Below are positions 978-5,635 of a stretch of 5,635 nucleotides of DNA, piece after piece; position 1 is the first letter of the stretch; each line of letters starts with the position of its first letter. The stretch is from a virus. The translations under genes and the position numbers were made by a program. Under the pieces are notes generated by a model. The model was not told the origin of the DNA and did not search any database. It worked only from the letters and a program-made list of their open reading frames with translations. Location of the stretch: positions 1-5,635 of IMG/VR virus record IMGVR_UViG_3300045988_000272. One strand, 5' to 3'.

Positions 978-986
978 TGTGGATAA
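978..986 (-). promoter_or_regulatory. Perfect DnaA box (TTATCCACA on the minus strand; TGTGGATAA on the plus strand).
   Basis: 9/9 match to the bacterial DnaA-box consensus TTATNCACA. A second, 8/9 copy (TGTGGAAAA, 1042-1050) sits at the equivalent position of the second repeat unit. Confidence 0.5.
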
Positions 987-1015
987 CTTGTTAAAATGTT
1001 GAAAATGTAGCAATA

Positions 1016-1035
1016 TGCACAAAAACCTTTGTGCA
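1016..1035. other. Perfect hairpin TGCACAAA-aacc-TTTGTGCA lying between the two iteron/DnaA-box repeat units.
   Basis: 8-bp inverted repeat (1016-1023 / 1028-1035) with a 4-nt loop. Confidence 0.55.
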
Positions 1036-1120
1036 ACATTTTGTGGAAAACCTGTTGAAAGTGTTGAAAGTGTTGAAAAAGCAAATAAAGGCCGTCCGGC
1101 GAGCGAAACCGAAAAGTTGC

Positions 1121-1160
1121 GTCATGCTCTTCGCACGGCGCACCGCGCCTACCGCATGAC
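1121..1160. other. GC-rich nested hairpin: outer stem GTCATGC (1121-1127) / GCATGAC (1154-1160), inner stem GGCGC (1137-1141) / GCGCC (1145-1149) with loop ACC. Candidate single-strand initiation (complementary-strand origin) structure.
   Basis: Inverted repeats read directly. This is the only strongly GC-rich island in an otherwise AT-rich noncoding region. Confidence 0.45.
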
Positions 1161-1216
1161 CTAAAATAAAAAGTTTCAGAAAAACTCTTGACAAATCGAA
1201 AGAACTGTGGAACAAT
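1161..1216 (+). promoter_or_regulatory. Sigma70-type promoter for the small-ORF cluster. It has an A-rich UP-like tract (1161-1187), a -35 TTGACA (1188-1193), a 17-nt spacer and an extended -10 TGgAACAAT (1208-1216).
   Basis: The -35 is a perfect consensus, the spacing is optimal and a TG motif precedes a 4/6 -10. The predicted TSS at ~1223 sits just upstream of the SD AAAGGGGG (1226-1235) and the ATG at 1242. Confidence 0.5.
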
Positions 1217-2167: not shown

Positions 2168-2633
2168 TTTCCGCGAAACCGCAACGGCAAAACCAACCGA
2201 AGCTGGGGAAAGCGTAAGGCGCACATACCTTTGGGAACGCAACGAAAAAGGCGAAAAGATCCTGAAGCTCGACCAGATAATCGACCAACAGGCCGAAATT
2301 GACAGCTACCTTGAAGAAACCAAGCTGGAAAACATCATCCGGCGAGCAAGCATCGACCCGGACATCGCAGCACGAATCGCGCCAGACCTCGGCGGCGGCA
2401 TCCAAGACTTTACCGAGGCACCGCAGACACTGGCAGAACTCCAAAGCATCATGCTGAGAGCGGAACAGATCTGGGAAGAAGTACCCAAGGAAATTAAACT
2501 CAAGTTCGACAACGACGTCGATAAGTTCATCTCGAGTTACGGGACAATCGAATGGGCGAAAAATCTAGGCATTCTGGAAGAAAAGCCGAAAGCCGAGCCT
2601 AACACAGAAGAAAAACCGGAGGCCAAAGAGTGA
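2145..2633 (+). CDS. Putative internal scaffolding protein (VP3-like), 162 aa, acidic C-terminus.
   Basis: ATG at 2145 with SD AAGGAG (2129-2134, 10-nt spacing). It lies immediately upstream of VP1 and is translationally coupled to it (GTGA at 2630-2633). Its size and position fit gokushovirus VP3, but I cannot verify sequence-level homology. The TTG at 2088 in the ORF track is unlikely to be the start. Confidence 0.4.
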   Translation: MAFRSVSNFRETATAKPTEAGESVRRTYLWERNEKGEKILKLDQIIDQQAEIDSYLEETKLENIIRRASIDPDIAARIAPDLGGGIQDFTEAPQTLAELQSIMLRAEQIWEEVPKEIKLKFDNDVDKFISSYGTIEWAKNLGILEEKPKAEPNTEEKPEAKE

Positions 2634-4336
2634 ACAGAAACAAAGACGCAGGATTTAACCAAGTCCCACGCTTGGACATCACGCGAAGTCGCTTCAAGCG
2701 GCGGCAGGACGTAAAGCTAACCATGAACGCAGGACAGCTAATCCCATTTTATGTGGATGAAGTGTTACCGGGCGATACTTTTAGCGTCGACCAAGCGGCG
2801 ATTATCCGAATGACAACGCCTATTTTCCCGGTCATGGATAACTGCTACATGGACGTTTACTACTTTAACGTCCCGTGCCGTATCCTGTGGGAACACTTCA
2901 AACGGTTTATGGGCGAAAACGACACTGGTCCATGGGTACAAAAGCAGGAGTACACAATTCCGCAAGTTAAAATAGTCGGCACAGCAGAAAAACCCGCACC
3001 TTATGAAGGCAGCATCCTAGACTACATGGGCATCCCGACCAAGATAAGCAAGGGCGAAAGCACGGCGTTCACGGTCAACGCGCTGCCAATGCGGGCGTAT
3101 GCTATGATTTGGCAGGAATGGTTCAGAGACCAAAACGTGGACAATCCGGCTATTAACAGCACGGCGGACGCAACTGTAAACTATAAGGACGACGAGAGTA
3201 AGGGCATGGACGCGGCAAAGCCAGACTTAGAGTACATTCTCCAAAACGCATACACCGGCGGCAGACCACTGCCGGTAAACAAATTTCACGACTACTTTAC
3301 AAGCGCACTCCCAAGTCCGCAGAAAGCAGGAGAACCCGTAACCATCCCGCTGACTGGCAACGCACCTGTAAAAGCATACTCAGACAACGGAAATACACTG
3401 GACAGTGAAGAAATATACTTCAGATCATGGAATGCGGCAGGAGAAACAAAATATGCAACCGGCCGCAACGGCTTCAAAACCTCAGAAGGGTACAGACTGC
3501 GCGGAGCAGACTCAGAAGCAACACTAGGAGAAGTAGTAGGAAAAAACCATAACCTATATGCAGACATATCGGAAGTACAAGCAACCACTATCAACCAGCT
3601 GCGTCAAGCCTTCCAGGTGCAAAAGTACTACGAAGAACTTGCGCGCGGCGGCAGCAGATACCGTGAAATGATTTATTCGCTGTTTCATACCAAAATCAGC
3701 GATAAAACGGTACAAATCCCGGAATATCTGGGCGGTACGCGCATCACCATAAACATGAGCCAAGTCATCCAAACCAGCGGCACAACCGACGAAAGTCCGC
3801 AGGGCAACACAGCAGCAGTGAGCGTTACGCCGTACAACGGCAGTATGTTTACCAAGAGTTTCGAGGAACACGGCTTTGTTATCGGTGTATGCTGCATCCG
3901 GCATGACCATACTTACCAGCAGGGACTCGAACGGATGTGGAGTCGTAAAACCAATCTGGATTTCTATTACCCTGTCTTTGCAAATCTGGGAGAACAAGCC
4001 ATTCTTAAAAAGGAGCTGTATCTGACTGGTACAAGCACCGACGAACAGGCATTTGGCTACCAAGAGGCGTGGGCAGAATACCGCATGAAACCTAACAGAA
4101 TCAGCGGCAAATTCCGGAGCAACGCAACGGGCACTCTGGATAGATGGCACTATGGAGACAACTATAAGGAAACGCCAAGCTTAAGTCAAGCATGGATGAA
4201 AGAAGGAGACTCTGAAATCCAGCGAACTCTCGCAGTGGACAACGAACCTCAATTTATCATGGACACGATCATTGACAACACCAGCGTCAGACCGATGCCC
4301 ATGTACAGCATTCCGGGGCTCGTAGATCATCACTAA
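2630..4336 (+). CDS. Major capsid protein VP1 (Microviridae F-like capsid, gokushovirus type), 568 aa.
   Basis: The N-terminus FNQVPRLDITRSRFKRRQDVKLTMNAGQLIPFYVDEVLPGDTF and the internal TINQLRQAFQVQKYYEELARGGSRYREMI are hallmark conserved blocks of gokushovirus-type VP1. GTG start at 2630 with SD GGAGG (2618-2622). Confidence 0.92.
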   Translation: MNRNKDAGFNQVPRLDITRSRFKRRQDVKLTMNAGQLIPFYVDEVLPGDTFSVDQAAIIRMTTPIFPVMDNCYMDVYYFNVPCRILWEHFKRFMGENDTGPWVQKQEYTIPQVKIVGTAEKPAPYEGSILDYMGIPTKISKGESTAFTVNALPMRAYAMIWQEWFRDQNVDNPAINSTADATVNYKDDESKGMDAAKPDLEYILQNAYTGGRPLPVNKFHDYFTSALPSPQKAGEPVTIPLTGNAPVKAYSDNGNTLDSEEIYFRSWNAAGETKYATGRNGFKTSEGYRLRGADSEATLGEVVGKNHNLYADISEVQATTINQLRQAFQVQKYYEELARGGSRYREMIYSLFHTKISDKTVQIPEYLGGTRITINMSQVIQTSGTTDESPQGNTAAVSVTPYNGSMFTKSFEEHGFVIGVCCIRHDHTYQQGLERMWSRKTNLDFYYPVFANLGEQAILKKELYLTGTSTDEQAFGYQEAWAEYRMKPNRISGKFRSNATGTLDRWHYGDNYKETPSLSQAWMKEGDSEIQRTLAVDNEPQFIMDTIIDNTSVRPMPMYSIPGLVDHH

Positions 4337-4352
4337 AAACGAAAGGGGGAAA

Positions 4353-4381
4353 GCCCGGGGCAATACCCCGGGCATATTTTT
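4353..4381 (+). terminator. Very stable all-GC hairpin (GCCCGGGG-caata-CCCCGGGC) plus T5, immediately abutting the VP2 ATG. Candidate partial terminator or attenuator between VP1 and VP2.
   Basis: 8-bp all-GC stem (4353-4360 / 4366-4373), 5-nt loop, then ataTTTTT (4374-4381). VP2 starts at 4382 with no SD. Confidence 0.55.
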
Positions 4382-5260: not shown

Positions 5261-5635
5261 ATGGGATGCAATAAACCGTTAATCCGGTTTTATGTACCTC
5301 ACGACAGAGAGGCGAGTGGGCGAGTGTACTCACTCGCCTCTTTCAACGAGATACACAAGACCAAAATGACGTACGAAAATTTAATGTACCGCAAAGATGT
5401 AATGTTGATACCATGCGGGCAATGTACCGGGTGCAGACTGCGCAAACGGAAAGATTGGAGCACACGAATGGAGCTAGAAGCATATGGTCATGACAAAGAA
5501 AGCATCTGGTTTATAACACTGACTTATGACGATGACCACGTACCAACACAGGACACGGAAACAGGCGAAATCTATAAAGGCGGCATAAACATCTGGAAAG
5601 GCGTCTCAGAGCGTCCAAGAACAGCGCAAACTCTA
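5261..5635 (+). CDS. Replication initiation protein (VP4 / Rep), 5' portion. Joined with 1-744 it gives a 339-aa protein.
   Basis: ATG at 5261 directly follows the VP2 stop (TAAATG), with a GAGAGG SD at 5248-5253. The N-terminus has the microvirus Rep Cys cluster PCGQCTGCRLRKRKDW and RCR motif I WFITLTYDD at ~5509-5535. An alternative in-frame start at ATG 5366 (MTYENL...) cannot be excluded. Confidence 0.88.
   Translation, partial: MGCNKPLIRFYVPHDREASGRVYSLASFNEIHKTKMTYENLMYRKDVMLIPCGQCTGCRLRKRKDWSTRMELEAYGHDKESIWFITLTYDDDHVPTQDTETGEIYKGGINIWKGVSERPRTAQTL
5308..5341. other. Strong hairpin inside the 5' part of rep: 11-bp perfect inverted repeat AGAGGCGAGTG / CACTCGCCTCT. A tandem copy of GGCGAGTG in the loop allows an alternative 8-bp stem with a TACT loop.
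   Basis: Left arm 5308-5318 and right arm 5331-5341. GGCGAGTG is duplicated at 5311-5318 and 5319-5326. Confidence 0.6.
5537..5635. repeat. Terminal redundancy: 99-nt exact direct repeat of nt 1-99 (signature of a circular genome or circular assembly; unit length 5536 nt).
   Basis: Nt 1-99 and 5537-5635 are identical base for base, and the Rep reading frame is preserved across the junction. Confidence 0.95.

Follow-up and report, generated by a model that had tools for sequence, protein, structure and literature searches.

A conserved array of DnaA-box-like repeats in a gut gokushovirus resembles the unwinding module of bacterial chromosome origins

Results

The stretch of DNA under study (the window) comprises the 5,635 nucleotides (nt) of IMG/VR virus record IMGVR_UViG_3300045988_000272 and represents a complete circular gokushovirus (Microviridae) genome of 5,536 nt, with positions 1-99 duplicated as 5537-5635. 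The closest records to it were gut gokushoviruses from the faeces of human, monkey, and pig. The plus strand carries every gene: VP4/Rep (5261 through 744, across the junction), VP5 (1925-2167; PF20577), VP1 (2630-4336; Phage_F, E = 5e-144), VP2, the scaffold protein VP3, and several small open reading frames (ORFs). VP4 is a phiX174-type HUH initiator (motifs RPHYH and the two-tyrosine YVAGYVTKK; phrog_942 match) and the sole initiator encoded in the genome. Downstream of VP4 lies a 497-nt non-coding stretch (745-1241), which holds the element examined here, an array of sequences resembling binding sites (boxes) of the bacterial initiator DnaA. From 854 to 1079, this element consists, in order, of a pure A/T tract, a run of TAG triplets, a 4-nt spacer, a pair of boxes, a spacer of variable sequence and fixed length, and two box clusters of the same orientation.

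An initial annotation of this DNA had drawn attention to a perfect DnaA box and an 8/9 second copy, each at the same position of a duplicated unit, and this description proved accurate. The sequence TTATCCACA occurs with zero mismatches on the minus strand at 978-986 (the plus strand reads TGTGGATAA), the 8/9 box TTTTCCACA occupies the minus strand at 1042-1050, and the two lie in register within a 22-nt direct repeat (975-996 and 1039-1060, 86% identical). By chance, the perfect 9-mer would be expected about 0.04 times per genome (2 x 5536 / 4^9). The annotation had left room for chance matches; when the window was compared with its shuffled versions, TTATCCACA with at most one mismatch was found at 4 sites versus 1.07 expected, a number reached in 3 of 200 shuffles. 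Degenerate consensus sequences were likewise enriched. At one mismatch or fewer, TTWTNCACA gave 19 matches versus 9.85 expected (1/200 shuffles), 7 of them within 978-1079, and TTWTCNACA gave 21 matches versus 8.76 expected (0/200 shuffles). Ten of these 21 sites lie in 904-1079 in a single orientation, including both boxes nearest the TAG triplets. The shorter motif TGTKGAA was present in 8 copies versus 1.49 expected (0/200 shuffles). Because these copies are all on the plus strand and all within 904-1212, the "iterons" that had been listed apart from the boxes cannot be kept separate from them; both belong to a single repeat family, TGTKGAWA.

The two boxes of the initial annotation each belong to one of the distal clusters, which lie on the minus strand. 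Cluster 1 (966-1005) contains TGTTGATAC (966), the perfect box TGTGGATAA (978), TGTTAAAAT (989), and TGTTGAAAA (997), and cluster 2 (1042-1079) contains the 8/9 box TGTGGAAAA (1042), two copies of TGTTGAAAG (1053 and 1062), and TGTTGAAAA (1071). An inverted pair of box-like 9-mers, ATATGCACA and TGTGCAACA, is found at 1013-1038, where an 8-bp hairpin (1016-1035) can also be drawn. An outlying box-like 9-mer on the minus strand, TGTGGAACA (1206-1214), overlaps the extended -10 of a promoter-like site at 1188-1216 (TTGACA at 1188, 17 nt, AACAAT, TG extension) that precedes a 59-aa ORF (1242-1421).

Upstream of the clusters, the plus strand carries a DnaA-trio-like run, TTG TAG TCG TAG TAG TAG (882-899), whose final TAG TAG TAG (891-899) directly abuts the spacer GGAG (900-903). 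The trio-proximal box pair on the minus strand (904-920) follows at once; it reads TGTTGAAAT and TGTTGAATA on the plus strand, with starts offset by 8 nt. Each proximal box has 1 mismatch to TTWTCNACA, 2 to TTWTNCACA, and 3 to TTATCCACA. The second, variable spacer (921-965) separates this pair from the distal clusters. On the far side of the trios lies a pure A/T tract of 27 nt (854-880), a candidate DNA unwinding element. When nearest-neighbour energies were computed, this tract was the least stable 25-bp duplex genome-wide (-20.1 kcal/mol versus a mean of -33.3, standard deviation 3.1). The initial annotation had placed the boxes next to an AT-rich tract; this holds for the region 850-1050 as a whole, which is 25-28% GC, but the pure A/T tract itself is about 100 nt upstream of the perfect box. 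Beyond the A/T tract is a GC-rich flank (816-850) with two short hairpin-capable repeats, CGTGCGCACACG and CGCGCGCACACG, which form a direct repeat. This flank may limit unwinding or serve as a VP4 site. The GC-rich sequence 816-859 can be drawn as tandem mini-hairpins (ACGTG-CGCA-CACGT and GCGCG-CACA-CGCGC) terminating in CATGATATTA. Relatives are likewise GC-rich 40-70 nt upstream of their TAG run (AT fraction 0.35 versus a genome mean of 0.54), but the sequence there is variable.

The arrangement of trios, spacer, and boxes was compared with that of bacterial chromosome origins. DnaA trios have the consensus 5'-TAG-3' (written 3'-GAT-5'), and the rule for a basal unwinding system (BUS) is at least three consecutive NAN trios, with 3'-GAT-5' preferred beside the box; the published search required one box 0-16 bp from the trios carrying no more than 2 mismatches and tolerated up to 4 in a second box (PMC8287927). 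Exemplars are boxes #6/#7 and the trios of Bacillus subtilis incC, Clostridioides difficile oriC2, and Helicobacter pylori oriC2 (PMC6669920, PMC8287927, PMC7561715). In the window, at least three consecutive NAN trios are present with 5'-TAG-3' next to the box, the trios lie on the strand that reads 5'-trios-spacer-TGTGGATAA-3', and the AT-rich region is on the far side of the trios; as in a whole oriC, additional box clusters follow within a few hundred bp. The B. subtilis unwinding scaffold (oHM558) reads 5'-TAGTAGAAGTAATAGTAG-GGCC-TGTGGATTTGTGGATAAGT-3', boxes #7 and #6 being TGTGGATTTGTGGATAA. When this scaffold was placed without gaps at every position of both strands, it matched 28 of 41 positions on 882-922, the best of 11,072 placements; the next best matched 22, and the mean was 10.4 (standard deviation 2.7). 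The B. subtilis and phage elements thus have the same triplet frame, strand, order, 4-nt spacer (GGCC versus GGAG), and 8-nt box offset, and in both the distance from the last trio to the outer box is 12 nt. The same layout is seen in the origins of C. difficile (as the reverse complement of 5'-CACCTACTACTATTACTACTATGA-3') and H. pylori (TAGTAACAGTAGTAG-GGG-boxes), so that bacterial BUS and the phage element alike possess an AT-rich tract, TAG-type trios, a G-rich spacer of about 4 nt, two tandem boxes, and extra distal clusters. Unlike a BUS, the phage element is not between dnaA and dnaN but on a 5.5-kb single-stranded DNA (ssDNA) phage with an HUH Rep, most of its boxes are TGTTGAAA rather than TGTGGATAA, the outer box of its pair is not the stronger one, and some relatives have an AT tract of only 12-13 nt.

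The specificity of this likeness was assessed with shuffled genomes. A permissive, Pelliciari-style rule was non-specific, in that it matched 17% of shuffled genomes and gave a spurious match at 3537 in the window itself. Therefore, our argument rests on a strict pattern, on the ungapped match to the B. subtilis scaffold, and on conservation. The strict pattern, (TAG)>=3, 3-5 nt, NGTKRAWA, was found in 0 of 5,000 shuffles of the genome.

The box sequences also have counterparts in bacteria. The TGTTGAAA-type repeats fit a clostridial consensus, TTATCNACA, which was described for the 12 clustered boxes in the oriC of Thermoanaerobacter tengcongensis (Clostridia), an origin studied by experiment, and has a free sixth position (PMC1888806). 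The phage repeats toggle between G and T at that position; binding to the T. tengcongensis boxes needs neighbouring boxes, and its origin, unlike the phage element, is chromosomal and lies upstream of dnaA (PMC1888806). Trio-proximal boxes of TGTTGA type are predicted in Corynebacterium glutamicum, Enterococcus faecalis, and Campylobacter jejuni.

Conservation of the element was examined in several sets of relatives. Phage records were searched by megablast, in which 964-1079 was the sole matching stretch in many otherwise unalignable gokushoviruses, and by a more sensitive search, which returned 46 records; a 28-nt core pattern retrieved more than 119 microvirus-sized contigs from IMG/VR. Across this 116-nt core, DNA identity was 78-98% in phages whose proteins were only 42-55% (VP1) and 35-60% (VP4) identical. 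In one relative (L044), the core was 98.3% identical in DNA, VP1 and VP4 were 50.5% and 44.2% identical in protein, and the 59-aa ORF was 93% identical to that of the window. The non-coding module and its adjoining small ORFs appear to be mobile between lineages, as judged from L044 versus the window and also from L008 and L096. Local matches (at least 20 nt at >=85% identity) were surveyed in 109 genomes with VP4 less than 62% identical. They were most frequent at 872-925, where they reached up to 77% of genomes, and at 964-1162 (74% at most), above every coding block, and 1029-1079 was matched in 74% of these distant genomes. Across divergent phages, no nucleotides in the genome are better conserved than those of the trio block and the box clusters.

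When 80 contigs picked solely by Rep similarity were scanned, the strict pattern was present on the plus strand in 69 and on the minus strand in one, and a 26-nt core pattern was present in just 39. Either the strict pattern or a relaxed form with one or two non-TAG triplets was found in 153 of 166 non-redundant genomes. The trio block of the window showed 91-95% conservation per column in 121 relatives that had been chosen by a pattern 130 nt away. Among 127 loci selected by DNA pattern, the family form was TTG TAG NNG TAG TAG TAG, in which the variable triplet always ended in G; relatives had 3 or 5 consecutive in-frame NAN triplets. The spacer between trios and box was constant at 4 nt and varied in sequence (GGAG, AGGT, GCAC, GCAA, AGAC, and others), and in 108 of 114 genomes the downstream core lay 130 or 131 nt from the TAG run. 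The intervening spacer (921-965) was much less constrained in sequence, its commonest base reaching at least 90% in 12 of 45 columns and only 46-65% in 25. The A/T tract was 6-33 nt long in relatives (median 13); among 141 relatives, the tract immediately before the trios ranked in the least stable 1% of the genome in 97% and was the global minimum in 69.

The boxes themselves were conserved as a consensus at fixed positions. In the 153 non-redundant genomes, TTWTNCACA with at most one mismatch occurred at 21.0/kb in the 260 nt past the first TAG versus 2.17/kb elsewhere, 89% of the box-like sites after the TAG run shared one orientation, and 135 genomes retained at least one perfect TTWTNCACA box. 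In 141 genomes, perfect TGTGNAWAA occupied three fixed offsets from the TAG run: +4, beside the trios (45 genomes), +78, corresponding to window position 978 (55, of which 44 read TGTGGATAA), and +141 or +142, corresponding to 1042 (83; TGTGGAAAA). The two boxes of the initial annotation are two of these three strong positions. The annotation had made conservation of the 9-mer among relatives a test of its idea, and the outcome was divided. The exact TGTGGATAA was found in only 44 of 141 relatives, invariably at position 978, where about half of the family reads TGTTGAAAA (at column 981, G and T are found in 60 sequences each; at column 984, 51 sequences have T and 69 have A); consensus boxes at the three positions, and the array as the most conserved DNA, were nonetheless upheld.

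Protein coding and strand folding were considered as explanations for this conservation, and both were rejected. A 27-aa hydrophobic ORF (MLNTMNFYPWNDIFWLILMLILLWITC; 911-994), with a GGGAG ribosome-binding site 7 nt upstream, overlaps the perfect box. Of the 52 genomes in the window's clade, 42 had it intact and 10 had it truncated or of other length; its ATG was absent from the other clades and from 89 of 141 genomes overall. It may encode a membrane or lysis peptide specific to this clade, or may have arisen by accident in T-rich sequence. A second ATG, at 1015, was conserved in 114 of 124 relatives but opened ORFs of 10-120 aa in either of two frames, one used by 71 genomes (MHK..CATFCGKPVESVE..) and the other by 41 (MTKIIVQHFVENLLKVLK..). 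The latter class, of about 69 aa with a conserved basic tail, is recorded as a hypothetical protein in MG945233 (window 1015-1164). A 1-nt indel at 1018, found in 40% of genomes, also counted against coding. With regard to structure, the folding energy of the plus-strand ssDNA was ordinary (z -0.67 and -0.44), compensatory changes were absent in all four candidate helices tested across relatives, in which substitutions broke pairs, and the sole Rfam match was a chance snoRNA (E = 0.34). Moreover, a 1-nt deletion at 1018 in about 40% of genomes abolishes the hairpin 1016-1035.

As a control, IMG/VR was scanned for (TAG)3-N3-5-TGTGGATAA, which gave 28 matches at 20 distinct loci. At 12 of the 20, more TGTGGAWAA clusters followed downstream (7.05/kb versus 0.027/kb), and these loci were on phage-like double-stranded DNA (dsDNA) contigs with the same layout. 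Viral dsDNA contigs of 9-160 kb with phage-like ORFs nearby (L187, L195, L200, L203-L206, L210, and L211) carry an AT tract, (TAG)n, a G-rich spacer, TGTGGATAA, and TGTGGAWAA clusters, and they apparently bear chromosomal-type DnaA unwinding modules, as far as their layout indicates. In L195, the sequence TGTGGATAAGTTGATAAG is almost identical to the proximal pair of a second gokushovirus clade, TGTGGAAAAGTTGAAAAG.

Discussion

In our view, the best reading of 854-1079 is that this rolling-circle ssDNA phage carries a putative copy of the module by which bacterial chromosome origins are unwound. The initial annotation had proposed, as one of two roles, that host DnaA is recruited to the replicative form, and this suggestion gained support from the BUS-like order, strand, and spacing and from the module's presence in 69 of the 80 relatives selected by Rep. 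On this sequence evidence, we consider it somewhat more probable than otherwise that the double-stranded replicative form is a target of host DnaA, whose binding leads to opening of the A/T tract. In such a scheme, domain IV of host DnaA would bind the box-like repeats of the proximal pair (904-920) and of the clusters at 966-1005 and 1042-1079. The two clusters, which hold the boxes noted at the outset, would be auxiliary and raise the local concentration of DnaA, like the distal boxes of B. subtilis incC; incC requires boxes both proximal and distal to the trios, and its distal boxes act at a flexible distance, probably via looping. From the proximal boxes, ATP-DnaA would oligomerise onto the plus-strand TAG triplets (882-899), and the oligomer would open the adjoining 27-nt tract. 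The opened DNA could then take up the host helicase, with the replicative form copied in theta fashion, or it could expose ssDNA to the VP4 nuclease. A further proposal, that this family of gut gokushoviruses amplifies its replicative form by DnaA-initiated theta replication from an oriC mimic and uses VP4 rolling-circle replication for progeny strands only, is tentative, and we regard it as doubtful. If true, it would couple a microvirus to the host initiator and cell cycle, and it could underlie persistence in a carrier state.

The array had also been likened to the oriV of a theta plasmid. RK2 oriV and P1 oriR are theta origins with DnaA boxes, an AT-rich region, and iterons for their own Rep (TrfA and RepA, respectively). 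The likeness holds insofar as the phage element has the look of a DnaA-dependent origin (trio run, spacer, and box pair) and combines boxes and repeats with an AT-rich region on a replicon that is small and extrachromosomal. It fails with respect to the initiator. In the phage, repeats and boxes are one motif, and no iteron-binding Rep of RepA/TrfA type was found when all ORFs were scanned against Pfam and PHROG, which returned only the HUH VP4, capsid, scaffold, and ORF5. A plasmid similarity search gave chance-level matches only (E ~0.7).

Several observations weigh against a DnaA-dependent unwinding module. Our attention was drawn to the likeness to BUS only after the sequence had been inspected. 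Phages of the phiX174 type replicate without need for DnaA. Most of the repeats are TGTTGAAA, which departs from the E. coli consensus TTWTNCACA at the sixth position, although the host's own consensus may differ; at the control dsDNA loci, the G variant outnumbered the T variant by 31 to 2. With 3 mismatches to TTATCCACA, the proximal boxes fall outside the published BUS search, which allows 2, unless the consensus of a particular species is used, and the 8-9-nt spacing of the repeats is tighter than the 11 nt typical for arrayed boxes. Among the relatives, 19 of 141 genomes had no perfect TGTGNAWAA in the module, and two (L052 and L066) retained the distal clusters without the TAG run and the proximal pair. 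Finally, a scan across Gokushovirinae found no BUS-like site in Chp2 and phiMH2K, and only weak minus-strand matches in SpV4.

The strongest rival explanation is that the region is the phage's own rolling-circle origin. On this view, VP4 would bind the TGTTGAAA repeats as iterons and cut the plus strand within or close to the AT tract or TAG block, and any resemblance to DnaA sites would be coincidental or secondary. VP4, with its HUH and two-tyrosine motifs, is the only initiator that the genome encodes, and no other candidate origin stands out, the remaining conserved nucleotide blocks being coding motifs. Also, phiX174-like origins stay constant while A proteins diverge, so that conservation of the element across divergent VP4 proteins is compatible with this explanation. 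The plus-strand origin of phiX174 is 30 nt inside gene A and is DnaA-independent, and its complementary-strand site is a PriA hairpin; the element described here shows neither of these features. It would, like the phiX174 origin, be a cis-acting replication element of a microvirus, and the two have in common the octamer TGATATTA (852-859 in the window), which we take to be the octamer around the phiX174 nick site. However, this octamer was the only match to a phiX174-type origin of about 30 nt, and TGATATT occurred in just 8 of 141 relatives. The approximately 12 repeats spread over 180 nt go far beyond an origin of that size, they are unchanged across VP4 proteins as low as 35% identical, and no conserved hairpin presents a nick site. 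A VP4 origin would also leave unexplained the exact BUS layout and the perfect DnaA boxes at fixed positions. We judge a VP4 origin with coincidental or secondary boxes to be unlikely; it is nevertheless compatible with a composite origin, in which VP4 and DnaA could act together.

Alternatively, the boxes could bind DnaA for purposes other than replication, such as titration of DnaA from the host origin, phage transcription tied to the DnaA level, or tethering of the replicative form to membrane-bound DnaA. The genome carries about 10 boxes of the same orientation, and the box-like site at 1206-1214 overlaps a promoter -10. Moreover, the injection-stop region of T5-like phages holds DnaA boxes in conserved pairs, TTATCAACA variants among them, for which a non-replicative role has been proposed (bioRxiv 10.1101/866236). 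Those pairs, like the present array, are conserved and precisely arranged in non-coding phage DNA, but T5-like phages have dsDNA genomes and no trios or unwinding element have been described in them (bioRxiv 10.1101/866236). Titration or tethering needs neither a TAG run of fixed spacing and strand nor the genome's least stable duplex alongside, both of which are as conserved as the boxes, and we consider a purely non-replicative role to be quite improbable.

The other role offered by the initial annotation, an A-site-like site for the ABC primosome, belongs to a wider class of single-strand origins for complementary-strand synthesis that also includes origins of the RNA-polymerase type. At an A-site, the DnaA box lies within an ssDNA hairpin. 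The phage likewise has a DnaA box on a replicon that is single-stranded; the packaged plus strand bears the TAG trios and is the one that DnaA binds as ssDNA, and short inverted repeats (I4, I5, and I6) and the 8-bp hairpin are available. However, the phage has no conserved stem that would make the box duplex. The candidate A-site stem (975-985/1014-1024) was 70% paired overall, with an invariant G-G or G-A mismatch and no compensation. Together with the ordinary plus-strand folding and the pair-breaking variation described above, this leaves the A-site proposal unsupported. Furthermore, the boxes are nearly all co-oriented and cannot pair with one another, and in published assays DnaA loading onto trios requires duplex boxes. 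Any single-strand origin at this locus seems very improbable to us.

Equally remote is the idea that the repeats are sites for another regulator, either a host protein or a small phage protein encoded by one of several small ORFs without known function. Spo0A is one candidate if the host forms spores: its 0A box (TGTCGAA), which at oriC coincides in part with DnaA boxes, is one position off TGTKGAA, and the strong Shine-Dalgarno sites would fit a Firmicutes-like host. However, the C of the 0A box is never found in the repeats, no DNA-binding family was detected among the small ORFs by PHROG and Pfam scans, these ORFs are variable or absent in genomes that retain the element, and the trio run and its spacing would be unexplained.

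With respect to precedent, replication of Microviridae is modelled on phiX174, which does not use DnaA. The initial annotation had held a DnaA-dependent mode to be undescribed for the family, and our literature search agreed, in that it found no paper linking Microviridae or Gokushovirinae with DnaA boxes. Searching for Gokushovirinae with DnaA yielded work on plasmid origins of ssDNA-virus Reps, and searching for DnaA trios with bacteriophage yielded reviews or unrelated studies, in both cases as judged by title. The eLife paper on gokushovirus prophages mentions no origin or DnaA element, and no cis-acting replication element had been defined for Gokushovirinae in the literature searched. 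As a type, the unwinding module is familiar; what appears to be new is that it forms the most conserved DNA in a family of rolling-circle ssDNA phages.

If the DnaA hypothesis is true, an origin-type DnaA module that ranks as the best conserved DNA in a large family of abundant gut phages would imply a different start to microvirus replication, tied to the DnaA-ATP status of the host. The hypothesis is directly testable with existing assays of DnaA binding and strand separation. The module also offers a sequence handle by which phage boxes could be matched to candidate host origins, and from which small replicons for gut bacteria could be built. A dozen dsDNA viral contigs show this layout too, a hint that borrowing of the chromosomal unwinding module by phages is more widespread.

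Other features of the genome

Strong Shine-Dalgarno sites precede most genes of the window, which suggests a host that uses such sites, fits a Firmicutes-like host, and argues against a Bacteroidota host. The single match among genome contigs was L126 (CALBJK010000280.1, 5,840 nt), a complete gokushovirus with the element, in a metagenome-assembled genome labelled uncultured Prevotella. Because the phage has strong Shine-Dalgarno sites, this host assignment is doubtful, and the placement of L126 in that assembly is likely a binning artefact. The start of VP4 had no match in E. coli genomes.

Two further motifs in this region were set aside. A pMV158-type nick sequence, TACTACGAC, on the minus strand of the TAG block was discounted, as it is on the wrong strand and relies on the variable TCG triplet, and a XerCD/dif site at 847-871, aligned by eye with E. 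coli dif at about 60% identity, was unconvincing. Terminator-like hairpins with a T run directly follow VP4 (755-797; CCGCCAAGTA...TACTTGGCGG) and VP1 (4350-4378; GCCCGGGG...CCCCGGGC). In L052 and L066, the VP4 terminator hairpin leads almost straight into the spacer.

Elsewhere, a block of about 27 nt (1607-1633) that opens the small ORF 1604-1825 (AAAACATGGAACGTAnGAGACCAGACCGA) was kept as DNA in about 60% of distant genomes. It was far better conserved than the remainder of that ORF, and an overlapping ORF in another frame begins at ATG 1612; the block could represent dual coding or another cis element. Lastly, one 10,917-nt contig (L071) contained two microvirus gene sets, with two VP1 and two VP4 genes 30-56% identical to those of the window; rather than a prophage, this contig represents a heterodimer or a chimeric assembly.

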